Part shown: positions 1 to 25,758 of the stretch, one piece after another
How positions within the stretch are numbered: position 1 is the first letter of the stretch
Layout of the letters: each line of letters begins with the position of its first letter
From: Planctomycetota bacterium
Lineage (GTDB): Bacteria; Planctomycetota; UBA8108; SXIK01
DNA: 64,000 nt
Direction: 5' to 3'
NCBI GenBank assembly: GCA_965223845.1
Contig: CBDCXR010000004.1
Location: forward strand, 1-64,000
The notes under the pieces: generated by a model
What the model was told of the DNA's origin: nothing
Seen by the model: only the letters and a program-made list of their open reading frames with translations
Database searches by the model: none
Translations under genes and position numbers: made by a program

Positions 1-988
1 CCTGTCGCGTGTAGTTCCCGAGCACGACCACGCCGACATTGCCGCGATTCGCGCTACCGCCGGCGTGGGCGCCCTGGTAGCGGAGACTCCGTCCTTCCCA
101 AATCTTGCCGGTTCGGTCGACAACGAAGTGGTAGCCGATGTCCGCCCAGCCGTTCTTCTGCTGGTGAACCTTCTGAATGTTGCGAATGTGCTGCGCGGTT
201 CCCTGAACCGATTGATCCCAGAACGACGGCCCGGCGCTGTGGTGGACCGTGATCCGGGAGATCGGTCCCATGCGGTTCAGCCGTCGAGGCACGGCTCGGC
301 GTGCGTTCCAGCGCGCCCGTCCATGAACGCGAATCGGCCGCGCGCTCGGTCTTCGCGTCGAAGCCGCACCCGACGACGCGACGCGAGGCGCCGCCGCCTT
401 GGCGTTCGCCGGTGCTGCGATGCGTGCGAGACGCGTCGTCTTTCCGCTTGCGATCGCTTCGAGCCCGGGCGGAGTCGGTCGTCCGATCTTGCCCCGGAAC
501 CGTGCCGCAGCGACGCGATCGCCTTCGCGAGTCGCGCAAAACGTGAGATACGCGAAGATCTCGCTCCGTCGACCCAGCCGCGCGTCGGCGAGCGCCTTCT
601 CGAAGTACCGGCGTGCGAGACGAAACTGCTTTGCCTCGAGGTAGCACTGGGCAATCCAGTAGCGAATCTCGCTGCCGACCTCACCCGGCGGGTTCGATTG
701 CTGCGCACGGTAGAGCTCGGTCCGTGCCCCGCGGTGATCGCCGGCGCGGAACTTGAGCTGCGCCGCCTGAAGAAGCGCGCGTGCACCCGAGTGGTGATCG
801 GAGCGAAACGAAGCCCTCGCTCCGGGGACCGCGATCTCGGACGTGGATAGGTTCTCGGGGGAGGCGAGCGGCGAATCGTCCGAGCCGCCGCGACGAGTCG
901 TCCCCTGGCATGCGAAAAGAGCGAGCGAAACGAGCGACGCGAGAGTCACCGATGAGAGCCGAGGAGAGCGCAGAAGACCCGAGAGCAT
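1..988 (-). CDS. Lipoprotein with TPR region and C-terminal N-acetylmuramoyl-L-alanine amidase (Amidase_2/PGRP-like); 3' end runs off the window
   Basis: Translated by hand (antisense to ORF 65..850). ATG at 988 after GGAAGG; lipobox LALFA-C; TPR-like EIRYWIAQCYLEAKQFRLARRYFEKAL; PGRP motifs GRARWNA, ITVHHS, GWADIGYHFVVDRTGKIWEGR, GAHAG, GVVVLGNY. Confidence 0.85.
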   Translation of the reverse strand, partial: MLSGLLRSPRLSSVTLASLVSLALFACQGTTRRGGSDDSPLASPENLSTSEIAVPGARASFRSDHHSGARALLQAAQLKFRAGDHRGARTELYRAQQSNPPGEVGSEIRYWIAQCYLEAKQFRLARRYFEKALADARLGRRSEIFAYLTFCATREGDRVAAARFRGKIGRPTPPGLEAIASGKTTRLARIAAPANAKAAAPRVASSGAASTRRPSARPIRVHGRARWNARRAVPRRLNRMGPISRITVHHSAGPSFWDQSVQGTAQHIRNIQKVHQQKNGWADIGYHFVVDRTGKIWEGRSLRYQGAHAGGSANRGNVGVVVLGNYTRQ

Positions 989-1493
989 GGACGATTCCCT
1001 TCCGATCCGGTGAGACGTACGAAGGGAATCCGGGTCCCCCTCTCTTCTCAGGCGGCGCGTCCGCGACTCGACACCGCGCGGGTAGGTCCCGCGATCGGGC
1101 CCCGAGGCGGTCGAGTCGGCGACGGCATCTTCCACCGAGCCTGCGCCCGGGGGGTGATCTCCTCGACCCCGAGGCGCGCGCCGTTCCTAACTTCTCGGAC
1201 TCAGCCGGTAAGATCTTTTGGTCTTTTTCCGGCCGCTCAAAGCCTACCGGACCGGCGTGAGTTTCCCACCAGATTCTACTACGCCGAGATAAATCGCGGG
1301 CTTGAGCGTTCGATGAATCGCCGCCCCGATACTTGCAGCGGGATTCGCTCTCCACCCGTCGGCGTGCGGGGTCTCCGTGTACCGTCACGACTTGCGGCGG
1401 ACCGTCGCGCCTCGTAACAAAACTTCGGAGGCTAGCGAAAGCAACGCGGTCCGCTCTGAGCTGGGGCCGGTAACGGTCGTGGGCGGGGCCGGA

Positions 1494-3791
1494 TCAGAAG
1501 CAGATCGAGTTGTTGCACGAGAGCGTCGTGCCGCCGTCGACGCCGCAGCCCGGGAAGGGCGACGCCGGAGCGCTTCCGCCTCCGAAGAGGTAGTTGAACA
1601 GGTAGATCGCGTCGGCGATCTCGATCCCGTCGCTCGAGTTGGCGTCGGCCGCGGCCTCGCACGCGGGGTCGGCTCCGCCGCCGAAGAGATTTCCGATAAT
1701 CGCACTCGGGTCGGAGATGTTGATTCGGCCGTCGTCGTTGACGTCGCCGCGCCGGAAGAAGGGCAGGTCCGTGCCGGCAGTCTGCAGCTTGTAGACGAGA
1801 CCCGAATCGATTCCCGCGAGGAACCCGAACTGCGCGGTGGAGGCGACTCCCCCGACGGACGACGTCCCCAGGGTCTCGCGGAGGTCGAACCGAAACTCCT
1901 CGGCGCTCTGCGCGAGGGTGCTCGTGTCGAAGACGACGCGCGCGTAAACGTCGAGGACGCCGGTCCGCGCGTCGGAGATCGGGAGATCGACGGTGAGGGA
2001 GCCCTCGCTCGCGGAGACGACCGAGATGCCGCCGGTGAGCGTCGCCTGGAGGTCGTCGAGGGCGAGCTGAGCGTCGCGAAACGCTTCGGGGATGGATCCG
2101 GTCCGATCGAACGGGTAGATCACGCCGTTCAGGAGATCCACCGTCCAGAACCAGCCGTTCACCTCGTCGTAGCTCAAATCGCCGAGCTGGCTGCGGAAGT
2201 GATTGAGGGGGATGTCGATGACGACGGGATCGCCCTGGATGGCGCCGTCGAAGGTCGTCGCGAGAAGCGAGTGGAGTCCGCCGTTTTGATTCAGCCAGTA
2301 GAGGCGCTCGTTTTGCGTCTCGTCCGGCGCGATCGAGACGCCCGTGATCGTGCCGCTCGGAAACGGGCTCGGCAGCGTCGCGCCCGGCTCGAGGTTGAGG
2401 TCGTAGAACTGCACGCCGCCCGAGTCGAGATCCGCGACGACGAGGTTCGCGCCGGAGATCGCCGCGGCGTACGGCCGCCCGGTCGCGCCGCTCGGGGCGA
2501 ATGGAGCGGTCGCGAGGATGCTTCCGGTCCCGAGATTGATGCGACAGGTGAGCGGGGACGTCGCGCCGCCGTTCGTGACGGTGAGCGTGTACTCGTACGA
2601 CCCCGCGGCGAGACCGGTATCGATCACCTCGCCCGTATCGTCGGCGAAGGTCGTCGTCAGCACGGTTTCGGCGGCGTCGCTTCCGAGCGCCGTCCGCTCG
2701 ACCGTGAGGGTCCCGTAGTCGAGGTTCTTCGTCCAGGCGAGCTTCACCGAGGTCGCGTCGTTCGCGGTGCAGGCGAGACTCGCCACCGTGCCGGCCTTCG
2801 CGCTGTCTGCGCTCACCTCGAGGATGCGCGGTTGTCCGCCATCGAGATCGATGTCGAGGAGGATTTCGCTTCCGTTCCCGGCGGAACAGGAGTCGGGCCA
2901 GTAGACGATGCCGGTGACGAATTGCGGTGATTCGCGATCGTCGTCGAGCGCGTAGAAGATGCCCGTCTCGTCTCCGACGCCGAAGTCTCCGTTCGCCGTA
3001 GCGAAGACGCGCACGACGCGCGTCGGTCGCCCGTCGGCAAGCGAGCCGGCTGTGATGTCGAAGTACTCGCCGGATTCGTCGGCGACGTAAGCGAGATCGT
3101 TTCCGTACGCACCGCCGCTGGCACCGCGCATCGGATTGAAAAAGTAGTTCGGGCGGTCGCCGTCGAGGACGAGCGCGCCGTCCGTCCCGATCTCGAAGTA
3201 GAGGTCGTTGACGATGTCGACGGCCCAGAGATTCCCCGTGCCCTCGTGGACGGTGATTCCGCCGAGCGTTCCCGTCACGATCGAGTCGTCACCCGAGTCG
3301 GTGCGCACGAGCTCGGCGAGCTGCGCCAAGTCGACCGTCCCGAGACGCACGGGCGCTTCGCCGAGCGTTCCGGTCTGCCAGATCTCGCCGTCGACGGCCC
3401 AGAGGAGAAGATCATTCAGGAAGACGAGCCCCGTGGTCGTGCGCGAGCCGCCCGGCGACGGAATCACGATGTCGCGACGAGCGATGGTTTCGATGACGGA
3501 CGTGTCGTACTCCCACACGTACGTGTTGCCGCTGAAGAAGTCCGCGACGTAGAGCTGATCCGGTGCGCCCTCGCGCCGCACGATGGTCCCCGCCGCCGGG
3601 AACGCGTCCGGGTAGGACGGATCGCCGAGCGGATTCGGGCCGGTGGAGTCGAGCACGCGGATGACGCACTGACCGAGGTCGAGATCCGACGCGCACGAGC
3701 ACTGCGCTCGGACGAGATCGGCGGTCGACGCCGTCAACAATGCGGCCAAGAGTCCGAAGCGAAAGCGCATCCACTGGCTGGGGGTCAACAT
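1494..3791 (-). CDS. Large secreted protein with beta-propeller-like repeats, an Fn3-like module and a C-terminal dockerin-like domain
   Basis: ORF 1494..3866; start placed at ATG 3791 after GGAG; signal peptide ending VRA-Q; tail FRRGDVNDDG...ADANSSDG...PFPGCG. Confidence 0.8.
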   Translation of the reverse strand: MLTPSQWMRFRFGLLAALLTASTADLVRAQCSCASDLDLGQCVIRVLDSTGPNPLGDPSYPDAFPAAGTIVRREGAPDQLYVADFFSGNTYVWEYDTSVIETIARRDIVIPSPGGSRTTTGLVFLNDLLLWAVDGEIWQTGTLGEAPVRLGTVDLAQLAELVRTDSGDDSIVTGTLGGITVHEGTGNLWAVDIVNDLYFEIGTDGALVLDGDRPNYFFNPMRGASGGAYGNDLAYVADESGEYFDITAGSLADGRPTRVVRVFATANGDFGVGDETGIFYALDDDRESPQFVTGIVYWPDSCSAGNGSEILLDIDLDGGQPRILEVSADSAKAGTVASLACTANDATSVKLAWTKNLDYGTLTVERTALGSDAAETVLTTTFADDTGEVIDTGLAAGSYEYTLTVTNGGATSPLTCRINLGTGSILATAPFAPSGATGRPYAAAISGANLVVADLDSGGVQFYDLNLEPGATLPSPFPSGTITGVSIAPDETQNERLYWLNQNGGLHSLLATTFDGAIQGDPVVIDIPLNHFRSQLGDLSYDEVNGWFWTVDLLNGVIYPFDRTGSIPEAFRDAQLALDDLQATLTGGISVVSASEGSLTVDLPISDARTGVLDVYARVVFDTSTLAQSAEEFRFDLRETLGTSSVGGVASTAQFGFLAGIDSGLVYKLQTAGTDLPFFRRGDVNDDGRINISDPSAIIGNLFGGGADPACEAAADANSSDGIEIADAIYLFNYLFGGGSAPASPFPGCGVDGGTTLSCNNSICF

Positions 3792-4412
3792 GAGACTCTC
3801 CACACGGAAGTCACGTGGGTTTGTTTGTTGGACAAAGGAGGATGCGATCGGCTGCGCTGGGAGCAACCGGTCGGTGACGGACCGTCCGGAAACGAGTGCT
3901 CTTTCCCATCGCAGCGCCGCGCGCTGCGGGGTATCGATTCACTCGGGACGGAGTCAGGCTGGGAAGATTTCGGAAGTCGGAGAAGGAGGCCGCGCGGATG
4001 GAGCAGTGCTCCCTCCGTACACGCGAGGAGGCGTCGAGGTCGAGGCTGCTGCCGAGCGGTCGGCGAGACTTCGAATCGGCGCGTATCGCTCACGATGACG
4101 GGGGGAGAGAATCCCCGAGGCCGATGGGCCGAGTATATCGGTGCACGGCTAGGAGGTCAATCGACCGCGGCTGTCGCAACTCGACTGGCGGAGCTGGTTT
4201 TCGGCGACGGTAGACGTTCGGCCGGCGACGTCGGCTCGGCGCGGTAGAACGCGGCGAGGAAGCGACGTAGGGACGGGCCGAACCCGACGCGCCCGCGCGT
4301 GAGTTCGGCGATTCTTCGCGTCGATCCTACGCGCCGGAAGACGGATCGAGCGGGACCGATGGTCGCCGGTCGTTCGGGGTCGCGCAGCGAAGAAGCGAGC
4401 GGCCGACGTCGG

Positions 4413-4742
4413 TCAGGCCGGGAGCGAGCGCATGGTTCGCGCGGCGACGGCGATGCGTGCGCGCGAGAGGGAGTCACCGACCGCCTGCTGCGTGATTCCC
4501 AGCTGGTCGGCGATCTGCTGCTGTTGCAGGTTCTCGCGGAAGTAGAGGTGAACGACCTGCTGCTGGCGTTCGGTGAGATCGTGGAAGTGGTCGAGCAGCG
4601 CGCGCGTCATGATCATTCCCTGATAGAGGCGCGGCAGATCCTCGTGGTCGACGCGCCCCGCTTCCATGCTCGGAAGCTTCCCTTCCACGTACGCGCAGAT
4701 CCTCGCGCAGGTACGCCGGAGTGGGCAGTTGTGGCAGGTCAT
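4413..4742 (-). CDS. Small regulator: N-terminal Cys4 motif plus sigma-70 region-4 HTH
   Basis: MTCHNCPLRRTCARIC then LTERQQQVVHLYFRENLQQQQIADQLGITQQAVGDSLSRA; GAGG upstream. Confidence 0.8.
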   Translation of the reverse strand: MTCHNCPLRRTCARICAYVEGKLPSMEAGRVDHEDLPRLYQGMIMTRALLDHFHDLTERQQQVVHLYFRENLQQQQIADQLGITQQAVGDSLSRARIAVAARTMRSLPA

Positions 4743-5040
4743 CGACCGAATCCTCTGGTGGTTGAGTTTGAGCCACAGGCGACGAACTCGACGCGGCGTG
4801 GAGCCGCCGTCTCCATCATTTTAGCGGCAAGCCCGCACGTCGAACTTTAGCGCCGTCTGGCGCTTGTTCTGGAAACGTATCATAGCGTGTTTGAGAGTGT
4901 CAAACCGCGTGGAAATGCCGTGCCAGACTTCGTCCGAGGCGGACCATTTGCGAAATCCGAAACTCCTCGACGCCTTGGCTCGGGAGGTCGATCTTGCGTC
5001 GCGCTCGTGGAGGAACGAAACTGGTTGGATTGAGGAGGGA

Positions 5041-5997
5041 ATGAGTGTGATTCAGATAGCTCCGAGGCTCGCCGCCGGCGCTCCAGACCGATTCCGGGGG
5101 GCGTACATGCTCGTTCTCGCCCTCGGGGCCGGAGCGTTCCTCGGGCCGGTCCCGCGCTTGAGCGCGGGTGAGATCGAGTTTTTTCCCGCCGCATTCCTCC
5201 CGCAGCAGATCACCGCCGAGCGCGGCGACACGGTGAAATTCATCTGGCGAGGCGGTGCACACACGGTGACGAGCGGGCTTCCCGACGGCGCGCCGGGATC
5301 CCCGCTGGAGCCGGGCGCGCTCTTCGACGTCGTTCTCGACGAAGCGAATCCGGAGTTCGAGCTCGTGATCCCACTCGAGCAGATCGGCGGGATCGCGTTC
5401 TTCGATCGAAACAACCCCGCGCAGATCGGTTTCATTTCGATCGATACCGGCGAGCGCACGCTCGTCGTTCAAGTCGTCGACAACGTGTTCATTCCGGAAG
5501 TGCTCCATGTTTTCGCCGGCGATACCGTTCTTTGGCGACACGATCCGAACGAAGGCTTCCACACCGTGACGAGCGGGAAGTCGTCGGACCCGGCCGACAA
5601 TCCGGGGGCGCTTTTCGACGAGGAGTCATCGGACGCGAAGCCCGAATTCGCATATCTCTTCGACGCTCCCGGTGACTACCCGTATTTCTGTCGGCCCCAC
5701 GAGCATCTCGACATGATCGGAGTGATCGTCGTTCAGCCGCGATTCATCCGAGGCGATGTGAACGGAGATGGCGCGGTCGACATCGCGGACCCGATTCGCA
5801 CGCTGAACCACCTCTTCGGCACTGCCGAAGGAGTGCCGTGCGACGACGCGTCGGATGCGAACGACGATGGCGCGGTCGACATCGGCGATCCGATCTACGC
5901 ACTCAATTTTTTGTTCGGGACCGGCGCCGAGTTTCCGCGCCCGTATCCGCTAGCGGGCGCGGACCGCACCGAAGATGAGCTTGTCTGCCGAGAGTAA
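5041..5997 (+). CDS. Secreted tandem cupredoxin (plastocyanin-like) protein with C-terminal dockerin
   Basis: GAGGAGG RBS; two GDTVxF/W...HTVTSG repeats; the second has type-1 Cu ligands H...YFCRPHEHLDM; FIRGDVNGDG tail. Confidence 0.88.
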   Translation: MSVIQIAPRLAAGAPDRFRGAYMLVLALGAGAFLGPVPRLSAGEIEFFPAAFLPQQITAERGDTVKFIWRGGAHTVTSGLPDGAPGSPLEPGALFDVVLDEANPEFELVIPLEQIGGIAFFDRNNPAQIGFISIDTGERTLVVQVVDNVFIPEVLHVFAGDTVLWRHDPNEGFHTVTSGKSSDPADNPGALFDEESSDAKPEFAYLFDAPGDYPYFCRPHEHLDMIGVIVVQPRFIRGDVNGDGAVDIADPIRTLNHLFGTAEGVPCDDASDANDDGAVDIGDPIYALNFLFGTGAEFPRPYPLAGADRTEDELVCRE

Positions 5998-6016
5998 GGA
6001 ACCGGTCGGAGGGGGA

Positions 6017-6856
6017 ATGATGGACGGAAGAATCGATTCAGTGTTCGAGCGCGTATTCGGCGCGCTTCCCGCGGTCGTGCTCGCATTCATCCCCTTCGCG
6101 CTCGACGCGAGTGAATCGTTTCGCTTCGAGATCCCAGAGGTCTCAGCGCAGCCCGGTGACGATGTCGAGCTCACCATCCGCGGCGATTACACGCGCTCGG
6201 CGCAAGGGTTTACGGTAGCCCTCACGTTCCCGCGTTCCGACCTCGAGATCCGATCGGTTTCGTTCGAAGACACGATCCTCGAAGCGATCGAGGCCGATTT
6301 CCTCGAATCGCGCGTCGAGTTCGACGGCGAGCGTGGAATTCTCGTGATCGCCGTTCTCGTCGATGCCGGCCCTCCGTTCGACGGTCAGTTGATCCCGAGC
6401 ATCGGGCAACCGCTCGACTTCGCGTACATCCGCGCACGTGTGTCTGAGGAAGCCGAGGAGGACATCGAGATCCGCCTCGAGGATGGGCTCCTCGCGCCGC
6501 CGATTTCGAACGTGTACGTCGTCGATCACGAGGCGATCCCCGTCGACGAGCTCGGCAGCACGCGAGTGCGACTCGCGGGTGTGGAGCGATTCCTGCGTGG
6601 GGACGCGAATGTCGACGGCATCCACGACATCTCGGATCCCCTTACACTCCTCAATTCGCTGTTTGGACACCGTCGACCGCTTCCCTGCGCGACCGCAGCC
6701 GACGCGAACGACGACGAGCAGATCAACATCGCGGATCCGATTTACCTGCTCGTTTTTTTGTTCGCCGACGGATCGCCGCCGCCCCCGCCGCAGACGACAC
6801 CGGGTCGCGATCCGACGCCGGGCTCACTCGTCTGTGCGCGAGCACTCTCCCAGTAG
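6017..6856 (+). CDS. Secreted cohesin-like + dockerin protein
   Basis: Signal peptide; IPEVSAQPGDDVELTI..AQGFTVALTF cohesin-like beta-sandwich; FLRGDANVDG tail. Confidence 0.75.
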   Translation: MMDGRIDSVFERVFGALPAVVLAFIPFALDASESFRFEIPEVSAQPGDDVELTIRGDYTRSAQGFTVALTFPRSDLEIRSVSFEDTILEAIEADFLESRVEFDGERGILVIAVLVDAGPPFDGQLIPSIGQPLDFAYIRARVSEEAEEDIEIRLEDGLLAPPISNVYVVDHEAIPVDELGSTRVRLAGVERFLRGDANVDGIHDISDPLTLLNSLFGHRRPLPCATAADANDDEQINIADPIYLLVFLFADGSPPPPPQTTPGRDPTPGSLVCARALSQ

Positions 6857-7190
6857 TCCAGCGCTTCGGCGGAGGCGAGGACCGTTCGCGTCGTGTTTGG
6901 CCATCGCGCGCCGGCGTTCCCTGGGCGCGACGACTCGCGTGGTATTGTAGAGCGAGTGGGGGTGTCCGCGCGCGTCGTGCGGTCGTGCCCCCGATGATCA
7001 CGAGGAGCCCGCGCGAGAAACGGAACCGGAAGGAAACCATCGTCGACGACTGCGTCATCCGCGATGGCTCCATCTCGGTCGCGAATCCTCGACGATTCGA
7101 CTCGCGTCTCCCGCGGCTCGTTTCGCAATGCCGTCCGAGCTGCCTTCAAATCGATCCCTTGCGCCGGGCCCAGGCCCGAGCGGTGCCGTC

Positions 7191-8336
7191 ATGCCAAGTT
7201 TTCGTTTTCGATCGTTCTCACTGTTTCTCGCCGTTCTCGCCGGGTTGGCGGTAGGTCTGCACGAGCCCGTCGCCGCCCAGGAATTCGCGATCGAGCTCGT
7301 GCCCGAGGCCGCGACGGTGAGTTCGTGCAGTGAGTCAACGTCGAGAATCGCCGCCCGCTTCGAGAATCCGGGTGGAGTGAGCATCGGCGGGTACCAGATC
7401 TTTCTCCGCTTCTCTGCCGAGCATTTTTCCGCGGTGGATTTCGAACCGGCGGACGTCGATGGCTTCGTTCGCTTCGCTAGTCCCGACGAGCTCGCGGATT
7501 GTGAGGTCGCCACCGCGGATCCGTGGAACGACGGCGCCGGTGAGGATGTGACCTCGGTCGTCGCGACGGTGATCGGCGAGGGAGTGTCGTCGCCGCTCGC
7601 GGCCGCGAGCGGCGAGCTCGGGAGCTTCGTATTCCGATCGCGCGGTCTCGCATCGGGCGCAGAAGGCGTCACGTTCCTGGGGAACGAAGACCCCTGCGCG
7701 TCGCACGTAACCCAGACGACGCGCGTGTTCGACGCGGCGGGGGACCTCGTCCCGTCGACGCTGACGCCGAGTGTCGCGGTTGTCGTCGAGAACGGCGGAC
7801 CGATGCTCGAGGGGCTCAGTTGTCGCGATCTCGGCGAGTCGATCGAGCTTCGCTGGATCCCGCCGGATGGCGTCCCGATTACCGGGTATCGCGTCTACCG
7901 AGACGGCGAACGGATCCGCGAGATTCCGATCGCGGGTCTGACATCGATCGAGGACGACGCGCCGCCACCGGGACGCGTGGAGTACTCGGTCGCACTTCTC
8001 CTCGCCGGCGGCGTCGAGGGCTGTCGGCGATCCTGTGTGCTCGAACGTTCGCGCGAGCGGTTTCGCCGCGGCGACGCCAACTCGGATGGCGCCGTGAACG
8101 TCGCCGACGCGATCGCGACGCTCGAGCATCTCTTCGGCAGCACGCCGATTCGGTGTCTCGATGCGGCCGACACCAACGACGACGGTCGGCTCAACGTGAC
8201 GGACCCCATCGCGCTTCTCGCGTTTCTCTTCGAGGAGGAGGCGACACCGCCCGCCTTTCCCTACCCGGACGAAGGTGTCGACCCAACCGAGGACAACCTC
8301 GGCTGTCCGCCCGAAGACGCCGCTCCTGCGGCCTGA
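7191..8336 (+). CDS. Secreted cohesin-like + Fn3-like + dockerin protein
   Basis: Signal peptide ending VAA-Q; IGGYQIFLRF; IELRWIPP..ITGYRVYRDG..YSVA (Fn3); FRRGDANSDG tail. Confidence 0.75.
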   Translation: MPSFRFRSFSLFLAVLAGLAVGLHEPVAAQEFAIELVPEAATVSSCSESTSRIAARFENPGGVSIGGYQIFLRFSAEHFSAVDFEPADVDGFVRFASPDELADCEVATADPWNDGAGEDVTSVVATVIGEGVSSPLAAASGELGSFVFRSRGLASGAEGVTFLGNEDPCASHVTQTTRVFDAAGDLVPSTLTPSVAVVVENGGPMLEGLSCRDLGESIELRWIPPDGVPITGYRVYRDGERIREIPIAGLTSIEDDAPPPGRVEYSVALLLAGGVEGCRRSCVLERSRERFRRGDANSDGAVNVADAIATLEHLFGSTPIRCLDAADTNDDGRLNVTDPIALLAFLFEEEATPPAFPYPDEGVDPTEDNLGCPPEDAAPAA

Positions 8337-8555
8337 CGGCGACGCGGCCCTCCCTCGCTTCGTGCGTCGCGGTGGGTCGCTCTCCCAACTCTCGAAGAAC
8401 GATCGCAGGCAGCTGATCCGTCCGAATCAGCGTGATTCCTGCGTCAAAGTGTCGCGACGTTCGTCCGATAACCGTCGCGCGCAGTCGTAGATCCGCGCTC
8501 TGTTGGGGGTGTGGGAGCGCCGGGCTACTACCTGTAGTGGTGTGGGGTCTTCGCG

Positions 8556-8583
8556 TTGACAGTGCGCACGAAGTGGGTAGACT
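8556..8583 (+). promoter_or_regulatory. Sigma-70 promoter of the dcw operon
   Basis: TTGACA (8556-8561), 16 nt spacer, TAGACT (8578-8583), upstream of mraZ. Confidence 0.7.
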
Positions 8584-8592
8584 GACGCCCCA

Positions 8593-8617
8593 AGTGGAGG
8601 GGAGTGGGGAGAAGTGG
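8593..8617 (+). promoter_or_regulatory. MraZ-binding direct repeats
   Basis: AGTGG at 8593, 8603 and 8613 (exact 10-bp period), matching the GTGG-N6-GTGG MraZ box; further AGTGG at 8536 and 8572. Confidence 0.8.
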
Positions 8618-8723
8618 TTTGATCGTCATCGTCGGTGGCGAGACCGCCTCGTTCTCCCCCGCTCGTATTTCGGCGATTCGTCTCGCCGGACTTCAGAGAG
8701 TTTTCGGAAGCCCCCTCCGCGAC

Positions 8724-9146
8724 ATGTTCCTTGGCGAGTTCGAGCACACGACCGACCCGAAGCACCGGGTCGTCTTACCTTCGCCGCTGCGCCGCGAGGT
8801 GGAGCTCCAGCGGGGCTTCGTCCTGGTGCCGGAGGAGAAGAACGAGTGCCTCGAGTTGCATCCGTTCGAGGCGTGGGAGAGGCGAGTTGCCGACCTCGAG
8901 AAGGACCACGACGTCCACCGGGACCGGACGGCGAGGGCGTACTTCCGTCGCTACATCGGACGCGCACAGCGCGGCCAGTGCGACAACCAAGGTCGCTTCC
9001 TTCTACCGGAGGTGCTGCGCCGGGCCGTCGGCATCGATCGCGATGTTCGCTTCATCGGCATGGTGCACTTCATCGAGATCTGGTCCGCGGAACGGTGGCG
9101 CGACGGGGAGTCGGTTCGCGACGCCGAGGGGGCGGAGGGTGATTGA
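8724..9146 (+). CDS. mraZ: Transcriptional regulator MraZ
   Basis: MFLGEFEHTTDPKHRVVLPS; CDNQGRFLLPEVLR; IEIWS; first gene of the dcw cluster. Confidence 0.93.
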   Translation: MFLGEFEHTTDPKHRVVLPSPLRREVELQRGFVLVPEEKNECLELHPFEAWERRVADLEKDHDVHRDRTARAYFRRYIGRAQRGQCDNQGRFLLPEVLRRAVGIDRDVRFIGMVHFIEIWSAERWRDGESVRDAEGAEGD

Positions 9147-9230
9147 GTGGGTGTGGATGGAATTCCCTGGGCGGAGCGCGTGACGGTGTTCGGTTGTCCG
9201 CTGTCGAGAGACGCTGGAAGGAGAGAAAGA

Positions 9231-9485
9231 ATGGATCAGAGAACGGATTCCCCCGTGGCGGCCGCGCTTTCGAGTCTGGAAGCAGAGGCTGCGTCATCCC
9301 GTTCGTCGCGACTCGAGCTCACCGGCGTCAACGTCGACGAAGCCCACCGCGCGCTGTTCGCTACACGGCTCGAGACGCTCCGCGAGCTCCATCCCGAACT
9401 GGCGGCGCGGGTCGAGTTGCACCCCGCGCTCCGGCGCAAGGTCCCGGCGGCGACCGGCGCCGCGGGCTGGATCTTCGGTGATTGA
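9231..9485 (+). CDS. Small hypothetical protein between mraZ and rsmH
   Basis: 84 aa; GGAAGGAG RBS; genome-like codon usage; no motif recognised. Confidence 0.55.
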   Translation: MDQRTDSPVAAALSSLEAEAASSRSSRLELTGVNVDEAHRALFATRLETLRELHPELAARVELHPALRRKVPAATGAAGWIFGD

Positions 9486-9597
9486 ATGCGCGCGGCGAAC
9501 GCGGACGAATCGTTTCGCGGACCGCCGCTAAAGGGAAGGAAGCGAAGAGTGAATCTCCGGGACGCCCGTCGCGCTGAGACCCAGGAAGAGAATCGTC

Positions 9598-10515
9598 GTG
9601 AACGAGCCGGATTCGCCCTCGCCGTCCGCGCCGCACGTGCCTGTGATGGCGACGCCGCTGCTCGACGTGCTTCGACCGGCGCGCGGCGAGATCTTCGTCG
9701 ACGCGACCGTGGGAGCCGGGGGGCATGCGGCGCTCCTCCTCGAGCGACTTGGCTCGGAGGGTCTCCTCATCGGGATCGATCGCGATCCGGATGCGCTCGC
9801 GCTCGCCTCCGCTTCGCTCGAAGCGACGGGGAATCCGTTCCGTCTCGTTCGCGGACGCTTTTCGGAGCTCCGTCGTCATCTCCGCGACCTCGGTCCCCCC
9901 GTTGAAAGTGGAGTCGACGGTGTCCTACTCGATCTCGGAGTCTCGTCGATGCAGCTCGATCGTCCCGAGCGCGGGTTCAGTTTCCTCCGCGACGGTCCGC
10001 TCGACATGCGCATGGACGCCGAGACGGGCGAACGCGCCGCCGAGCTGCTCCGCACCATCGAGCTCGCTGATCTCACGCGGCTTCTGCGCGAACTGGGCGA
10101 AGAACCGCGCGCCGCGCGCGTTGCTCGCGCGATCGTCGCCGCGCGACAGGCCGGCGACCTCGAGTCGACGGGCGACTTGCGCGACGCCGTCGAGTCGGTC
10201 GTCTCGCGACAACCGGGCAAGGTGCATCCCGCAACGAGAACGTTTCAGGCAATTCGGATCGCCGTCAACCGCGAGCTCGACGAGCTCCGTGCCGCGCTCG
10301 CGGATCTCGATCGGGTGGTTCGACCGGGTGGACGCGTCGCCGTCCTCTCCTACCATTCGCTCGAGGATCGCATCGTCAAACGCTGGCTCGCCGGAGCCGA
10401 GAGCGACGGGTTCTTCATCGCGCAGCGTCCGCTCATCCGTCGTCCGGACGACGAGGAAATCTCGCGCAATCCTCGCGCCCGGAGCGCTCGTCTCCGCGCG
10501 GCGGTGCGAGCGTGA
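9598..10515 (+). CDS. rsmH: 16S rRNA m4C1402 methyltransferase RsmH
   Basis: HVPVM, DATVGAGGH, DLGVSSMQLD..RGFSF, HPATRTFQAIRIAVN, NPRARSARLR. Confidence 0.97.
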   Translation: MNEPDSPSPSAPHVPVMATPLLDVLRPARGEIFVDATVGAGGHAALLLERLGSEGLLIGIDRDPDALALASASLEATGNPFRLVRGRFSELRRHLRDLGPPVESGVDGVLLDLGVSSMQLDRPERGFSFLRDGPLDMRMDAETGERAAELLRTIELADLTRLLRELGEEPRAARVARAIVAARQAGDLESTGDLRDAVESVVSRQPGKVHPATRTFQAIRIAVNRELDELRAALADLDRVVRPGGRVAVLSYHSLEDRIVKRWLAGAESDGFFIAQRPLIRRPDDEEISRNPRARSARLRAAVRA

Positions 10516-10536
10516 GCGCCGATCTCGAGGAGGCGA

Positions 10537-10938
10537 GTGATGGCCCCGGGAGTGCGTGCGTTTCTCCTCAGCGTGGTGCTGCTCACGATCGGGCTCGCCG
10601 CCGTTTTCGTCGAGGTCGAAACTCTCCGGAGCGGGGAGCGCATCCGCCAGATTCTTCTCGAGACGGACGAGCGCCGCGAGCGGGTGAGACGCGCCGAAAC
10701 TGCCGTTCGCCGCGCACTGAGCCCCGACCTCCTCGTGCGGGAAGTCGAGGAGGAGTTCGAGGCGCGCGAGGCTGAAGAGCGCGGGCGTTTGCGCGCGCTC
10801 GAGACTTCGACCGACGAGGGTGGAGACGCAGTAGGCGATCCGCCTCGCGAGGGGCGTCCCGTCGCATCGCTCGGAGACGAGCGTCCGGCCCCGGGGCGAG
10901 GGGATCGAAGGCGGCGGCGGTGGAAACTCCAGCCGTGA
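10537..10938 (+). CDS. ftsL: FtsL-like bitopic coiled-coil protein
   Basis: N-terminal TM helix plus coiled coil; position between rsmH and ftsI. Confidence 0.6.
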   Translation: MMAPGVRAFLLSVVLLTIGLAAVFVEVETLRSGERIRQILLETDERRERVRRAETAVRRALSPDLLVREVEEEFEAREAEERGRLRALETSTDEGGDAVGDPPREGRPVASLGDERPAPGRGDRRRRRWKLQP

Positions 10939-10979
10939 CGCGGCGCGAACTAGGCTAGGACCAAGGACGGAGAGGAGCG

Positions 10980-12851
10980 ATGGGACGGAGACGACGGCGA
11001 GCGGACGGGCCGAAACAAGATCCGTCCGCGGTCGAGCGAGTACGGCGATCCCTTCGAATTCGACTCGTCACGGCGGCGGTGTGCGCATCGATCGGGTTTG
11101 CGGTCCTCGCCGGACGGCTCTACTCGATTCAGGTCGGAGACCACGAGCGGTTTCGCGCCTCCGCCGAGAACATGCACACGCGCCGCGAGCCCGTCCTCGC
11201 GCACCGCGGAGATATTCTGACGCGCGACGGAGTGATCCTCGCGCGGAACGAGCTCGTTTTCGACATCGCGATCGATCCCTCGCGCATCGCGCCGGAGCGA
11301 ATCGGTCCCGTCGTCGACGCGATCTGCGAGACACTCGGAACGAGCGCCGAGTACCGGCGCGAGCGCGCGGTCCTCGCCCGACAGTACGCCGAGCGAGGAA
11401 GACAGTTTCTCTCGCTCGGTCGATCGGTCGCGCGAGACGTGGCCCGGCGCGTTCGTCCCGCCGTGATCGAGGCGGTGAAGAGCGCGAACCCGCTCGCGGT
11501 GATCGTCGAGCGCCGGAGCGAGCGGAGGTACCCGCGCGGAGCGTTTGCGGCGTCCGTCGTCGGGGTGAGCGACCGCGAGGAGCGCGGAGTCGAGGGGCTC
11601 GAGCGGGCGTTCGACGCCTACCTCGCGCCGAAGGACGGGACGCGCGAGGTCCAAGTGGGGGCTCACCCGGCGAGTGCGCGCGCGTTTCGCCCCGGAAATG
11701 GCTACGTGGCAGCCGTCCCCGGTTACGACGTCGTGACGACGATCGACAGTCGCCTCCAGTCCATCGTCGAGACGCAGCTCGAGTGGGGGGTGAAGCGCAT
11801 GCGCGCGCAGGGCGGCGTCTGCATCGTCCTCGACTGTCGACACGGCGACATTCTCGCGCTCGCGAACTACCCGACCTACGATCCGAACCAATACGAAAAG
11901 TACCCCGAGCGCGAACGCGCCAAGCGGCGGCGGAACCGCGCCGTCGAGGATGCTTACGAGCCGGGTTCGGTCGTGAAGGGATTCATCCTCGCGAAGGTCC
12001 TCGAGCACGGCGTCGCCGCGCGCCACGAGCGCATTCGGTCGATTCTCCCCGCCGGCGTGCGCTGGGACGGAGGGAAGCGCGCCGTGTTCGGCCGCCGCCC
12101 GGTTACCGACGTGCACGCGCATCCCGGCATGACGGTCGAGCAGGCGCTCTACCAGTCGTCGAACATCGGCATGTCGGCGCTCGGCATTCGCCTCGGTCGC
12201 GCTCGGATGGTGGAGATGCTCGACGCCTTCGGCTTCGGTCGACCGACCGGCGTGCTCCTCCCCGCGGAGGTGAACGGTCGCTACCAACCGCCCGAGGAGT
12301 GGAAGCCGTTCCAGTCGATCGTCTCGCTCTCGTTCGGATACGCGGTGATGGTCTCGCCCGTTCAGCTCGCGTCGGCATTCGCGGCGCTCGTTAACGGCGG
12401 GAAGCTTCTTCGGCCGCGCATCGTCGATCGCGTCGAGCGCGATGGCATCGTCCACCGGTTTCCCCGCGGGGAAACCGTCGGGCGGCCGATCTCCGAGGAC
12501 GTTTCGCGTCAAATGCGCGAGATCCTCGCGAAGGTCATCGAGGACGACGAAGGGACCGCGAAGTGGATCCGCGTCGAGGGGTTTCGCTTCGGTGGGAAGA
12601 CCGGCACGGCGGACATCGCGACCAATGGTCGGTACACGAAGACGAACTATCTTGCGTCCTTCGAGGCGTTCGCGCCGGTCGACGATCCAGAGGTCGTCGT
12701 CCTCTGCATGATCGAGAAGCCGCGGGATTCGATCTACGGCGGGATGGTGAGCGGTCCGGTGGTCGTCCAGATCCTGCGGCACATGTACCGTGTCGACGAG
12801 GTGTGTCGACTCGAAAAAATGGGTGCGGCGGGGCCGTGGATCGGTTGGTGA
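10980..12851 (+). CDS. ftsI: Class B penicillin-binding protein (FtsI/PBP3)
   Basis: RGDILTRDG, RRYPRG, GLE, YEPGSVVK (SxxK), SSN, KTGT. Confidence 0.93.
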   Translation: MGRRRRRADGPKQDPSAVERVRRSLRIRLVTAAVCASIGFAVLAGRLYSIQVGDHERFRASAENMHTRREPVLAHRGDILTRDGVILARNELVFDIAIDPSRIAPERIGPVVDAICETLGTSAEYRRERAVLARQYAERGRQFLSLGRSVARDVARRVRPAVIEAVKSANPLAVIVERRSERRYPRGAFAASVVGVSDREERGVEGLERAFDAYLAPKDGTREVQVGAHPASARAFRPGNGYVAAVPGYDVVTTIDSRLQSIVETQLEWGVKRMRAQGGVCIVLDCRHGDILALANYPTYDPNQYEKYPERERAKRRRNRAVEDAYEPGSVVKGFILAKVLEHGVAARHERIRSILPAGVRWDGGKRAVFGRRPVTDVHAHPGMTVEQALYQSSNIGMSALGIRLGRARMVEMLDAFGFGRPTGVLLPAEVNGRYQPPEEWKPFQSIVSLSFGYAVMVSPVQLASAFAALVNGGKLLRPRIVDRVERDGIVHRFPRGETVGRPISEDVSRQMREILAKVIEDDEGTAKWIRVEGFRFGGKTGTADIATNGRYTKTNYLASFEAFAPVDDPEVVVLCMIEKPRDSIYGGMVSGPVVVQILRHMYRVDEVCRLEKMGAAGPWIGW

Positions 12852-12970
12852 AGATCCGAATGGTGAGGCGCATCGAGGCGGTGGATCGACGATCGAAGCG
12901 CGGATAGGATTCAGGGACTAACGAACGCGGGCGAGCCTGCGAGCTCGGTCCGCGCTCGGTAGAGAAGTGA

Positions 12971-14479
12971 GTGGAGAGAATCAGCATGCGTCTCAAGGAG
13001 CTGGGAGACGGCTGCCTGCGCGTGCCGTCGGACCTCCAGGACGTGGAGGTGACGGGGCTGACGTGTGATTCGCGCTGCGTCAAGCCGGGCTGGGCGTTCG
13101 TCGCCGTCGACGGGGAGTGCGTCGACGGACATCGATTCGTGCGTCGCGCGGTTTCCGCTGGAGCTAGCATCGTCGTCGGGGAACGGCCGCGGCAGCGGCG
13201 CGCGAACGGAGTGGGCGATGCGGTCGATCGGACGATCCGCTCGCTGCGCGTGCCGTATCTTCGCGTCGCCGACTCGCGCGCGGCGCTGGGTTACCTGAGC
13301 TCGAACTTCTACGGGCGAGCCCACGAGAAAGTGCGCGTCGTCGGCGTGACGGGCACGAAAGGAAAGACGACGACGGCGTGGCTGCTCGACGCGATCTTTC
13401 GCGCGTCCGGGGTCGTGTCGGGGCTTCTCGGCACGGTCCACAATCGAATCGGGGGCAGTGTCCGATCGGCACGGAATACGACCCCGTCGAGCCTCGAGCT
13501 GCATCGCTACCTCTACGAGCTCGTCCGCTCGGGCGGAACTCACGCCGTCATGGAGGTCTCGTCGCACGGCATCGCACAGCGACGGACCGCGGGACTCGAG
13601 TTCGACGCTGCCGTGTTTACGAACATCGCGCCCGAGCACCTCGATTACCACGGGACGTTCGAAGACTATCTCGCGACGAAGGTGAAGCTCTTCGAGACTC
13701 TCCGCCCGGACGCCTACGCGATCCTGCCCCGCGATGAGGACGCATCGGCGCGGATTCAGCGTGCGACCCCCGCCCGCGTCGTTTGGTTCAGCGATCGTCC
13801 CGACGACGGCGTGGAGGACATCCGGAGCGGTATCGGCGGCACCAGCTTTCTCTGGAAGGGACGCCGCGTCGAAACTCCGCTCGTCGGAGCGCACAACCTC
13901 CTCAACCTTCTCGGAGCGATGACTGCGGCCGAGTGTATCGGGATCGCGCCCGACACCATCGCCCAAGCGGCGCGAGCCGCTGCCGCGCCTCCGGGGCGAC
14001 TCGAGGAGATCCCCTCGGGGCGCGGCTTCCGCGTCTTCGTCGATTACGCGCACACCGACGGTTCCCTCGAGGCCGTCCTCCGCGCGCTCCGACCGCTCAC
14101 GCCCGGCCGGATCATCACGGTCTTCGGTTGCGGCGGCGACCGCGATCGCGGCAAGCGCCCGCGGATGGGGCAAGTCGCCGAGAAAGGCTCGGACCACCTC
14201 GTCGTCACCTCGGACAACCCGCGGTCGGAGGATCCCGAAGCGATCCTCGACGACATTCGCGCCGGCCTCGAGCGGCCCGACGAGACGGTGTTCGAACCGG
14301 ATCGCCGCGCCGCGATCGCGCTCGGCATCCGCATGGCGCGTCCGCACGACGCCGTTCTCCTCGCTGGCAAGGGGCACGAAACCTACCAGGAGATTCAGGG
14401 CGAGCGCACTCACTTCGATGACCGCGAGGTGGCGCGGGAGTTTCTCGCGGAGCTGAGTGTGGGGATCGAAACGGTATGA
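12971..14479 (+). CDS. murE: UDP-MurNAc-tripeptide synthetase MurE (meso-DAP type)
   Basis: GVTGTKGKTTT, MEVSSHG, EHLDYH, VDYAHT, DNPR, GKGHETYQ. Confidence 0.96.
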   Translation: MERISMRLKELGDGCLRVPSDLQDVEVTGLTCDSRCVKPGWAFVAVDGECVDGHRFVRRAVSAGASIVVGERPRQRRANGVGDAVDRTIRSLRVPYLRVADSRAALGYLSSNFYGRAHEKVRVVGVTGTKGKTTTAWLLDAIFRASGVVSGLLGTVHNRIGGSVRSARNTTPSSLELHRYLYELVRSGGTHAVMEVSSHGIAQRRTAGLEFDAAVFTNIAPEHLDYHGTFEDYLATKVKLFETLRPDAYAILPRDEDASARIQRATPARVVWFSDRPDDGVEDIRSGIGGTSFLWKGRRVETPLVGAHNLLNLLGAMTAAECIGIAPDTIAQAARAAAAPPGRLEEIPSGRGFRVFVDYAHTDGSLEAVLRALRPLTPGRIITVFGCGGDRDRGKRPRMGQVAEKGSDHLVVTSDNPRSEDPEAILDDIRAGLERPDETVFEPDRRAAIALGIRMARPHDAVLLAGKGHETYQEIQGERTHFDDREVAREFLAELSVGIETV

Positions 14480-16107: not shown

Positions 16108-17207
16108 TTGCCATCCTCCTCGAGCGCTGGTGGGAGGGTACGCTCGAACCGCTCGTTCGCGCCGCGGGAGCACTCGTCTGCGCTCTCGCGATCGCGCTCG
16201 CGACCGGTCCGCTCCTCATCCGTCGTCTGCGCGAAGGTCGCGTTCACGACCGAGTGCAAAAAGGGGATTCGGCGCGACTCGACGAGCTCAGTGCGCACAA
16301 AGAGAAGACCCCGACGCTCGGGGGGCTCTTCTTCTTCGGCGCGGTCGTCGCATCGATCGTTCTTTGGTGTCGACTCGATACGCTCGCGCCGTGGCTCGCC
16401 GTCGGCGTGATCGTCGCGCTCGGAGGTCTCGGTCTCGTCGACGATCTCGCGAAGCTCCGTTCGGGGCGAAAGGGCATTTCCGCGCGGGCGAAGCTCGCCG
16501 GTCAAATCGCGGTTTCGCTCACCGCGGCGTCGATTCTCTACGCCTTCGGGCCAGCGGTGCGCTTCGGCGCGGAGGGCGCGGCGGCGGATGTCGGCGGGAC
16601 AGTCCTCTTCGTACCGGTCGTCCACCACGTGATCGTGCTCGGATGGGTCTGGATCCTCCTCGCGACGTTTGTCACGACCGGCGCCTCGAACGCGGTCAAT
16701 CTGACCGACGGGCTCGATGGACTCGCGGTCGGCTGCAGCCTCATCGTCGCCGGAGTGCTCGCTCTCGCCGCCTTCGCGGGTGGTGAGGCAGCGACCGCCG
16801 GGCGACTCGCCGTGCCGCACGTCGCGGGTGCGGGAGAACTCGGCGTCGTGCTCGCGGCGGTCATCGGCGGTGGCTTCGGCTTCCTCTGGTTCAACTGCCA
16901 TCCGGCCCGCGTGTTCATGGGCGACACCGGGGCGCTTCCGCTCGGCGGGCTCCTCGGGTTCTCGGCCGTGTTTCTCCGGCAGGAGGTCCTTCTCGCCGTC
17001 GCCGGGGGAGTGCTCGTCGTCGAGGCGCTCTCCGTCATTCTGCAGGTCGCCTCGTTCAAGCTCACGGGTCGGCGCATCTTCAAAATCGCGCCGCTCCATC
17101 ACCACTTTCAGTTCGGTGGGCTGCGCGAGACGCAGATCACCGTCCGGTTCTGGCTCACCGGCGCAGTTCTCGCCGTCGGTTCGCTCGTGATGTTGAGGCT
17201 GGGGTGA
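16104..17207 (+). CDS. mraY: Phospho-N-acetylmuramoyl-pentapeptide transferase MraY
   Basis: TPTLGG, DD, NAVNLTDGLDGL, FMGDTG, APLHHHF; C-terminal part of ORF 14457..17207. Confidence 0.96.
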   Translation: MIAILLERWWEGTLEPLVRAAGALVCALAIALATGPLLIRRLREGRVHDRVQKGDSARLDELSAHKEKTPTLGGLFFFGAVVASIVLWCRLDTLAPWLAVGVIVALGGLGLVDDLAKLRSGRKGISARAKLAGQIAVSLTAASILYAFGPAVRFGAEGAAADVGGTVLFVPVVHHVIVLGWVWILLATFVTTGASNAVNLTDGLDGLAVGCSLIVAGVLALAAFAGGEAATAGRLAVPHVAGAGELGVVLAAVIGGGFGFLWFNCHPARVFMGDTGALPLGGLLGFSAVFLRQEVLLAVAGGVLVVEALSVILQVASFKLTGRRIFKIAPLHHHFQFGGLRETQITVRFWLTGAVLAVGSLVMLRLG

Positions 17208-17252
17208 TGACGGCGATCGCGATGTCGCCGCCGAAGGGCGGGAGAGAACACC

Positions 17253-19642: not shown

Positions 19643-19647
19643 AGCAG

Positions 19648-20505: not shown

Positions 20506-20626
20506 TCACGTTCGCCGGAAGAGACCGACCTGCTCGGCAGGTGCCGCGACCGGAAAGCTTTTTCCTGGCCGCGCGCATCGGAATCTGCTTCCATACGGCC
20601 GTGAAGAGAGTGGAGAGGAGCCCGCA

Positions 20627-22126: not shown

Positions 22127-22240
22127 ACGGACAAGCTTCGCCGCGCGAAGATTCGAGGGCGAAACGGTACACTTCAACTGGGGCGGCTTCGAGAGGTGAG
22201 AGCCGTCGGCTCGGACGAGTCGCGGCGGCGGTGAACTACG

Positions 22241-25713: not shown

Positions 25714-25758
25714 GCCCCCGATGCGGCGGAACTCCGCGCAATACTGGGAATTACGACA

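Follow-up and report, generated by a model that had tools for sequence, protein, structure and literature searches.

A 64,000-nucleotide stretch of DNA from an uncultured Planctomycetota bacterium (contig CBDCXR010000004.1 of assembly GCA_965223845.1, positions 1 to 64,000; hereafter the window) encodes six proteins that end in the same dockerin-like tail. Four of them are neighbors and are from now on referred to as A (1494–3791, minus strand), B (5041–5997, plus strand), C (6020–6856, plus strand) and D (7191–8336, plus strand). Two further tail proteins, E (55340–57643, plus strand) and F (57685–59772, plus strand), are found about 50 kb away. We lean towards the view that A to D belong to a lineage-wide cohesin-dockerin assembly system unrelated to cellulose, in which C, E and F would act as connectors and A, B and D as cargo. 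The N-termini of all six proteins are hydrophobic and signal-peptide-like, as judged by eye from the translations, and A to D are putatively Sec-exported.

The C-termini of A to F share one homologous module that can be aligned over about 85 residues. A hidden Markov model (HMM) built from related tails matches exactly six of the 451 window open reading frames (ORFs) of at least 80 amino acids, with E-values from 1.7e-33 to 4.8e-28, and a scan of the window for the two-loop motif characteristic of the tail located it only at the C-termini of the same six ORFs. An earlier note on this DNA had listed four adjacent proteins with a common dockerin-like tail. The tail HMM, the alignment and profile matches to solved dockerins confirm all four, but the set was incomplete, as E and F carry the tail as well. 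In the PDB, the best dockerin matches were the CelS dockerin (2mte_A, 8.3e-7) for the D profile, 2y3n_B for B (3.9e-5) and for the A profile (7.1e-5), and 1daq_A for F (4.4e-4). Alignment A1, which contains C and 21 relatives (22 sequences out of 27 search matches, 31–51% identical over the alignment), matched solved dockerins at E-values between 6.9e-4 (2y3n_B) and 0.03. The Pfam family Dockerin_1 (PF00404, gathering cut-off 22.9 bits) recognizes the excised tails of A (29.9 bits), F (28.9 bits) and D (27.2 bits), while those of E (21.1 bits) and B (18.2 bits) score below the cut-off.

Dockerins were recognized by two tandem segments of about 22–24 residues, each consisting of a 12-residue EF-hand-type loop with Asp or Asn at positions 1, 3, 5, 9 and 12 followed by a helix. 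B, C, D and F have canonical residues at all of these calcium-ligand positions in the two loops, and loop 2 of A contains a one-residue insertion. The tail begins with an aromatic and basic lead-in, continues with the first 12-residue calcium loop and its helix and a short connector with a conserved Cys, and then reaches loop 2 with its helix, a proline-rich stretch and a DPTxDxLxC-like ending that holds a second conserved Cys. In C, where the tail spans residues 190–278 (6587–6856, plus strand; tail HMM 1.6e-32), loop 1 starts at residue 195, the first Cys is residue 223, loop 2 starts at residue 228 and the second Cys is C-terminal. The tail of A (1494–1769, minus strand; tail HMM 4.8e-28) has four Cys, that of B (5722–5997, plus strand) contains two repeats identical at 17 of 24 positions, and that of D occupies 8061–8336 (plus strand). 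By these features the tail is classed as a dockerin homologue with predicted calcium loops. The proline-rich extension after the loops comprises 30–40 residues, and the last 30 or so residues of the tail have no match in Pfam or NCBIfam. Of 150 related tails, 146 carry a Cys in column 35 and 146 in column 84, which are the two main positions, and Cys in further columns tend to accompany one another (73 with 90 and 8 with 39). In addition, the number of Cys is even in 87 of 93 tails of relatives. Because Cys columns are paired or co-occurring and Cys counts are even, a disulfide probably links the extension to the segment that separates the two loops, and the pairing pattern suggests one to three disulfides per dockerin.

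Protein C has a minimal layout: its 278 residues contain a signal-like N-terminus, one cohesin module (residues 31–189; 6110–6586, plus strand), the dockerin tail and nothing else. Profile A2, built from 15 cohesin modules of the C family, was compared with the PDB and its top ten matches were all cohesins, led by 3l8q_A (1.1e-7). The match to the cohesin of the scaffoldin ScaC (5lxv_A, 3.8e-6) runs from end to end, aligning positions 9–158 with 8–167. Further cohesin matches include 1qzn_A (3.6e-4), 3f2l_A, 1zv9_A and 3bwz_A (all about 4e-4) and a CipA cohesin (1aoh_A, 1.3e-3). The orthologue profile A1 gives weaker cohesin matches in the PDB, with E-values of 0.013–0.36. Comparing the modules with solved folds by profile, a step proposed in the earlier note, thus assigns the tails to dockerins and the module of C to cohesins at the level of sequence. 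Once the tails are removed, the C module still aligns with the tail-adjacent modules of E and F (BLASTP, 2.6e-8 and 1.2e-4), and it is likewise related to modules in many relatives. The Pfam Cohesin cut-off (PF00963, 24.1 bits) is reached in three relatives of the C module family, L017 (28.1 bits), P0037 (26.3 bits) and P0038 (25.4 bits), and A2 also retrieves P0129, a protein with 12 Pfam Cohesin domains. Based on these profile relationships we accept that C, E and F carry a cohesin. With one cohesin, one C-terminal dockerin and no catalytic domain, C has the architecture of a monovalent adaptor. Because it holds only these two modules and full-length relatives of it exist, C is best read as a putative minimal connector resembling a monovalent adaptor scaffoldin. 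An ESM Atlas query with the C orthologue P0009 returned like clusters (0.97–0.98), which serves as a lead only.

E and F are paralogues (BLASTP, 6e-68) of the same layout. E consists of an unassigned N-terminal domain of about 330 residues, a PKD domain, a cohesin (residues 528–672) and the dockerin tail, and in F the PKD domain is likewise followed by a cohesin (residues 454–589) and the tail. In a tree of 150 tails, the tail of F is closest to that of D, with 59% identity. Together, E and F would be connectors with extra domains, and A, B and D dockerin-only cargo.

The earlier note had assigned a cohesin-like domain to two proteins, C and D. For C this assignment stands, as only cohesins are found at the top of the PDB list of A2, but for D it does not. 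D (381 residues) comprises a signal-like N-terminus, the orphan N-terminal domain in question (7263–7805, plus strand), an FN3/Ig-like domain (7806–8045, plus strand) with weak titin and fibronectin matches in the PDB, and the dockerin tail. As a cohesin protein it was rejected: hhalign against A2 gave a probability of 0.2% and the cohesin HMM an E-value of 3.8, no cohesin is found among the PDB matches of the D profile, and local hhalign against 360 cohesin modules produced an alignment that is collinear over 155 columns yet insignificant (E-value 0.015, probability 2.9%). D has one orthologue, P0029 (42% identity), which is the sole one for its N-terminal domain as well. In the ESM Atlas, P0029 groups only with Planctomycetota dockerin clusters, and its structural matches (TM-score at most 0.53) include none to a cohesin cluster, again a lead only. 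A cohesin in D is accordingly not supported by sequence comparison. The FN3/Ig-like repeat is common to many tail-bearing proteins in relatives.

Protein B is encoded by an ORF that can be extended to a TTG at 4864, with Met at 5041 as the likely start, and consists of a plastocyanin-like domain and the dockerin tail. The cupredoxin domain (5485–5736, plus strand) matches Copper-bind (PF00127) with 33.5 bits. Aligned with plastocyanin (1pcs_A, 3.3e-6), B has the same His, Cys, His and Met residues, at positions which we take to be the type-1 copper ligands of plastocyanin, so that its type-1 copper site is apparently intact. The NCBIfam plastocyanin model TIGR02656 matches at 7.4e-12, below its cut-off. 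Because the NCBIfam equivalog cut-offs are not reached, we regard B as related to plastocyanin but not as a plastocyanin proper. Of the cupredoxins initially reported for one protein, one plastocyanin-type domain in B is confirmed, and a second is putative. Protein A (765 residues) starts at a Met before a signal-like stretch, its ORF reaching a TTG at 3866, and has a body of no known family in front of the tail. In Pfam, the whole protein matches only Dockerin_1 (25.2 bits), the body matches no family in Pfam, NCBIfam or the PDB, and the PDB matches of A are dockerins only. The propeller repeats previously proposed for A find a partial counterpart in blade-like motifs that recur in two halves (residues 80, 130, 188, 279, 450 and 548), but no Pfam or PDB propeller is matched. 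An orthologue of A is found in one related locus (L005) at 32% identity.

To place the six proteins in a wider context, 185,579 species genomes were scanned with a dockerin pattern derived from A1. This yielded at least 591 stretches and 230 confirmed relatives, from which 78 loci were kept. The 78 loci stem nearly all from metagenome-assembled genomes (MAGs) of Planctomycetota, often several per genome. HMMs for both modules were run on 6731 ORFs from the window and the 78 loci and detected the tail in 156, the cohesin in 39 and both in 38. The single cohesin ORF without a tail is cut off at the end of its locus. Conversely, 118 of the 156 tail-bearing ORFs have no cohesin. Because the 78 loci had been found via the dockerin motif, the test was repeated starting from cohesins. 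A search of 1.84 billion cluster representatives with A2, which covers the cohesin alone, gave 3232 matches at E ≤1e-3, of which 1275 reach E ≤1e-10. Among the best 150 of these 3232 representatives, 143 have the tail at the extreme C-terminus. The seven tail-less proteins comprise two that stop inside the cohesin, two that by eye look frameshifted at their end, one type IX secretion system (T9SS) protein (P0129) and two others. The number of cohesin matches per protein in the same 150 is one (14 proteins), two (79), three (45), four (10), six (1) or nine (1).

The tail is carried by very diverse proteins. The 78 loci contain 93 proteins with the strict two-loop motif, which in 87 of them lies at the C-terminus with constant spacing to the last residue. 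Their cargo domains, assigned with Pfam at E ≤1e-5, include repeats and modules (FG-GAP, PKD, cadherin-like, Ig, TSP3, HYR, laminin-G and beta-helix repeats, as well as CotH and lamin-tail domains), peptidases C25, M10, M4 and S8, a penicillin amidase, two families of di-haem peroxidase, a purple-acid-type phosphatase, endonuclease I, arylsulfotransferase and Kazal inhibitors. At the same threshold no glycoside hydrolase domain was found in the six window tail proteins or in the 93 proteins of relatives. No multi-cohesin primary scaffoldin was identified in the window, and relatives have one to four cohesins, rarely more, in a survey that included no search aimed at carbohydrate-binding modules (CBM), surface-layer homology (SLH) domains or sortase signals. 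The earlier statement that neither a glycoside hydrolase nor a multi-cohesin scaffoldin is present thus holds for the window proteins scanned, in which all cohesin proteins have a single cohesin.

The tails appear to constitute a single dockerin class without a split into enzyme-borne and scaffoldin-borne types, because connector tails are intermixed with cargo tails and only mildly clustered. On the tree of 150 tails, 38 of which come from cohesin-bearing proteins, 25 label changes were counted, compared with 33.9 ± 1.9 after shuffling, and the nearest neighbor of a cohesin-bearing protein's tail is a cargo tail in 23 of 38 cases. A loose lipobox pattern is found in 18 of the best 150 of 3232 cohesin representatives, of which about 13 are convincing by eye. 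A lipobox is also present in two proteins of the Big_5-FG-GAP-cohesin-dockerin type in related loci (L045, 8228–10753, and L066, 7658–10255). Such lipoprotein cohesin-dockerin proteins are candidate membrane anchors. An architecture of lipoprotein signal, Big_5, FG-GAP repeats, one or more cohesins and the tail recurs in relatives (L045, L066, P0109, P0163 and P0038).

We hypothesize that, after export and calcium-dependent folding, the dockerin of one protein would dock onto the cohesin of another. As every cohesin-bearing protein has a dockerin and there seems to be one dockerin class, connectors could be docked in turn, which would give rise to short chains or branched complexes without a central scaffoldin. 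One cohesin per connector would lead to chains, and two to four cohesins to branched assemblies. In relatives, the lipoprotein-type cohesin-dockerin proteins would be the likeliest membrane anchors. The analysis establishes that both modules are homologous to their solved counterparts, how domains are arranged and distributed, and which cargo they accompany, while binding, location, stoichiometry and disulfide of the system are what we infer here from protein sequences.

Several points weigh against the assembly system proposed here. At the level of single proteins, Dockerin_1 gives no match at all in C, in either the whole protein or the excised tail, loop 2 of E is degenerate with Ala at position 5 and Ser at position 12, and Pfam Cohesin is not significant in any window protein, C, E and F included. 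With respect to the census, the 78 loci, having been found through the dockerin motif, are biased towards dockerins, and the 150 cohesin representatives examined come from the top of a ranking that favors multi-cohesin proteins, the other 3082 lying outside this sample. Modules are joined nearly without linkers, which could limit docking and differs from the flexible linkers of cellulosomal scaffoldins. In the best 150 of 3232, the corrected gap between consecutive cohesins has a median of −2, with 181 of 212 junctions at 10 residues or fewer, and the gap between the last cohesin and the dockerin is at most 9 residues in 97 of 143 proteins (median −1 and at most 10 in 121 of 143 after correction of the HMM ends). 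Mutual information between cohesin and dockerin, calculated with average product correction (APC) in 105 proteins, is 0.245 for the adjacent and 0.233 for the upstream cohesin, compared with 0.21–0.23 after shuffling, and is thus uninformative. The window contains no anchor. Finally, gene adjacency is weak evidence of partnership, because the orthologues of C have unrelated neighbors.

A more far-reaching version of the assembly system can be formulated. It describes a scaffoldin-free system of Planctomycetota in which all the linker-less cohesins reside on proteins ending in a disulfide-clasped dockerin of a single class, so that exported proteins would wire themselves into chains and branched networks on lipoprotein anchors, possibly in an enlarged periplasm, with redox proteins such as B and the di-haem peroxidases among the cargo. 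The whole would then be a general organizer of the exported proteome and not a polymer-degrading machine. Taken with all its parts, this proposal is speculative and we would not expect it to hold in full. A location at the cell surface is assumed, and a network in the periplasm would be compatible with lipoprotein anchors, too. Cupredoxins, di-haem peroxidases, endonuclease I and penicillin amidase typically reside in the periplasm.

The earlier note had proposed that proteins like C polymerize head-to-tail, and the same could apply to E and F, resulting in surface filaments or a mesh capped by dockerin-only cargo such as B. Since cohesins are near-always found on tail-bearing proteins and the dockerins are intermixed, head-to-tail docking is architecturally possible. 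C consists of a cohesin and a dockerin only, a cohesin almost always shares its protein with a dockerin, and connector dockerins are not distinct, so that a cohesin taking cargo dockerins may also take those of connectors. The lack of a separate connector-dockerin class would, if anything, argue against a strict hierarchy. In Ruminococcus bromii, the report on Amy4 describes self-recognition and predicts multimerization (PMC4611034). However, specificity cannot be read from the sequences analyzed here, and no covariation signal was detected between the two modules. The ScaC cohesin rejects dockerins of the group to which its own dockerin belongs (PMC5429695), and a strict adaptor role of this kind would be equally compatible with the layout of C. 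A chain of one-cohesin proteins would moreover leave only one free socket and carry little cargo, and both the surface location and the anchor are assumed, the window being devoid of an anchor. On these grounds, polymerization of C, E and F into filaments seems unlikely.

It is similarly doubtful that the tail binds no cohesin at all and instead serves as a calcium-stabilized C-terminal domain for retention in the envelope (on glycan, peptidoglycan or an S-layer-like coat) or as a sorting tag, with the cohesin-like modules acting as Ig-like spacers or binding other ligands. Known sorting domains sit on varied cargo, and the cargo of the tail is very varied. Further, the tail occupies the very C-terminus with little variation in its spacing to the last residue (fixed in 87 of 93), most tail-bearing ORFs lack a cohesin (118 of 156) and no cohesin-only receptor was seen in the window, the related loci or the best 150 of 3232 representatives. 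The C-terminal position does not discriminate between the two readings, because cellulosomal dockerins are also mostly C-terminal. Against retention or sorting, homology of the tail to dockerins is clear and its calcium loops are intact, a large and conserved cohesin family that near-always accompanies the tail is encoded in the same genomes, and none of the curated sorting-signal families matches the tail.

Less likely than the other readings, and in our estimate quite improbable, is a closed pair in which the dockerin folds back on the adjacent cohesin of the same chain and leaves it without a free socket, as in the comparable paired arrangement of the X-module-dockerin dyads of cellulosomes: the last cohesin does abut the dockerin (at most 9 residues apart in 97 of 143, corrected median −1) and dockerin-adjacent cohesins do cluster in a 360-module tree (34 label changes versus 137 ± 5 after shuffling), but cohesin-cohesin junctions are equally short (median −2, 181 of 212 at 10 residues or fewer), making short linkers a style of the family and not a feature of the dockerin junction, identities between positional classes are alike (0.24–0.27) so that the clustering is explained by positional orthology, no covariation links adjacent cohesin and dockerin, and C, if closed, would have neither a free site nor another domain and would be left without function, although it is conserved and secreted. 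A special subtype of dockerin-adjacent cohesins was likewise considered and rejected, as the tree clusters by position while the class identities do not differ.

Non-cellulosomal cohesin and dockerin modules reportedly occur in all domains of life, as surveyed by Peer et al. in 2009. One of the closest counterparts of C is ScaC of the Ruminococcus flavefaciens cellulosome. ScaC also combines one cohesin with a C-terminal dockerin, has no catalytic module and links cargo dockerins to other cohesins, the role we propose for C (PMC5429695). Its cohesin (5lxv_A) is the second-best solved match of A2. ScaC differs in that it serves plant-cell-wall enzymes in a Gram-positive anaerobe and plugs into multi-cohesin scaffoldins with a sortase-substrate anchor, whereas the system of C has no glycoside hydrolases, no scaffoldin-type dockerin class and no linker, and its dockerin has a Cys-bearing extension. 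The ScaC cohesin moreover does not bind dockerins of the group of its own dockerin (PMC5429695).

Within the same phylum, a peptide-degrading assembly called the planctosome was hypothesized for the Nemodlikiaceae (Phycisphaerae) by Andrei et al. in 2019 on purely computational grounds (PMC6461901). It resembles the system described here in combining cohesins and dockerins without a link to cellulose and in its proposed role of assembling exported enzymes, namely peptidases (PMC6461901), and peptidases C25, M10, M4 and S8 are among the cargo in the relatives analyzed here. In this model, the planctosome anchor has no dockerin and consists of lamin-tail, P-domains and cohesin, and its adaptor has the order dockerin-HYR-cohesin (PMC6461901). 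In the family described here, by contrast, the cohesin directly precedes a C-terminal dockerin and cohesin-only proteins are almost never found. Supplementary figures 13–14 of that paper may show like architectures (PMC6461901).

Amy4 of the R. bromii amylosome also contains a cohesin and a dockerin together, and the cohesin accepts both the dockerin of Amy4 itself and dockerins borne by other enzymes (PMC4611034). Multimers were predicted there, providing an experimental precedent for chain formation (PMC4611034). Unlike C, Amy4 is a glycoside hydrolase family 13 (GH13) amylase of a Gram-positive gut bacterium in which separate cohesin-only scaffoldins, Sca2-4, exist. Cohesin and dockerin proteins also occur in the archaea Archaeoglobus fulgidus and anaerobic methanotrophs (ANME), neither of which is cellulolytic, and some pair one dockerin with several cohesins (PMC9012536). 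They belong to another domain of life and to other cohesin and dockerin subfamilies. Compared with the classical cellulosome of Clostridium (Acetivibrio) thermocellum, the tail best matches type I dockerins (CelS, 2mte_A, 8.3e-7) and has the same duplicated calcium loop and helix, but no carbohydrate-active cargo was found here. The near-identity of the two repeats of B recalls dual-binding dockerins, a concept taken from PMC5429695. The known dockerin clasp is non-covalent (PMC3821032), whereas the conserved Cys pair of the tail suggests a covalent one. Dockerin expansions in Planctomycetes have been noted (PMC5264255), and a genome-wide survey of cellulosome-displaying bacteria contains one member of the Planctomycetes-Verrucomicrobia-Chlamydiae (PVC) group whose scaffoldin has two cohesins (PMC11557425).

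The literature therefore already contains both a cohesin-dockerin system of Planctomycetes unrelated to cellulosomes and a protein whose cohesin binds its own dockerin, and the scaffold idea of the earlier note is preceded by the planctosome (PMC6461901) and the self-binding of Amy4 (PMC4611034). What appears to be different here is the Cys-bearing dockerin extension, the near-obligate linker-less fusion of cohesin and dockerin, the single dockerin class and a cargo range that includes a blue-copper protein. A literature search with most subscription journals outside its coverage returned no description of an obligate cohesin-dockerin fusion, a Cys-clasped dockerin, a single dockerin class or a cupredoxin-dockerin fusion in Planctomycetota.

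The binding of dockerins to cohesins ranks with the strongest protein-protein interactions known and has found wide use in protein engineering. To our knowledge, nearly everything known about them comes from cellulose-degrading Firmicutes. The 3232 cluster representatives make up a very large uncharacterized family in which socket and plug are near-always found on one chain and proteases, redox proteins, nucleases and adhesin-like repeats serve as cargo, and protein C is an easily testable entry point to it. If the modules bind as predicted, modular docking would emerge as a way in which Planctomycetes organize exported proteins, C, as a minimal connector of 250 residues, would allow a test of the planctosome idea, and new orthogonal, possibly disulfide-stabilized docking modules would be at hand. 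Should binding fail, the widespread dockerin annotation in this phylum would be misleading as to function.

The arrangement of A to D as a unit, as put forward in the earlier note, is not conserved. A conserved B-C-D operon was ruled out by tblastn searches with the bodies of A to F and neighboring proteins against the 78 loci, which place the orthologues of C beside other genes. In the two loci with the closest C orthologues among those listed (L001 and L002), the neighbors are oxidoreductase and histidine-kinase genes and not B- or D-like ones. The only recurring pair among the loci listed is A with a small sigma-like gene, in L005. Tail-bearing genes are widely both scattered and clustered in related genomes, where 20 kb can hold up to six of them. 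For example, one locus (L008, 6952–19711) contains six tail-bearing genes in about 13 kb, including those of a purple-acid-type phosphatase, a beta-helix protein and a cohesin-dockerin protein. Because tail-bearing genes cluster in this way in relatives, the adjacency of A to D is typical of the family and not that of a dedicated operon. The same tail was also found in a few MAG loci labeled Nanoarchaeota, Parcubacteria, Woesearchaeota, Omnitrophota, Proteobacteria and Thermoanaerobaculaceae (L039, L047, L059, L062, L020/L077 and L043). Mis-binning, gene transfer or a broader distribution of the family could explain these labels.

The G+C content of the A–D region is 64–67%. B and C are probably co-transcribed, because only 22 nucleotides separate the stop of B from the start of C and a GGAGGGGG ribosome-binding site precedes C. 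The spacing between C and D is 334 nucleotides and contains a weak terminator-like site. Apart from this site after C, a promoter and terminator scan of positions 3800–8700 gave nothing above chance, and an RNA-family search of positions 1–10000 gave no match. Between A and B lies the gene of the small sigma-like protein (4413–4742, minus strand), whose 109 residues comprise a Cys-rich N-terminus and sigma-70 region 4 only (Sigma70_r4 in Pfam, 2.2e-9). A copy with 57% identity adjoins the A orthologue in L005 (4476–4772), with two E/F-like genes nearby, and the protein may be a dedicated regulator of the dockerin system.

Upstream of the A–D region an amidase/TPR gene is located. Directly downstream of D follows a cell-division and cell-wall cluster (8604–23155, plus strand) encoding MraZ, MraW, a short ORF, a penicillin-binding protein (PBP) transpeptidase, Mur ligases, FtsW and MurB. 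Further along, tandem Cpn60-family genes (25712–27610 and 27611–29311, plus strand) are followed by DnaJ and GrpE genes, the group spanning 25712–31535. The window also encodes a 1090-residue protein (44431–47703, minus strand) that combines DUF4388, TPR repeats and a PQQ/BamB-like beta-propeller, and a second PQQ-like propeller protein at 35173–36627.

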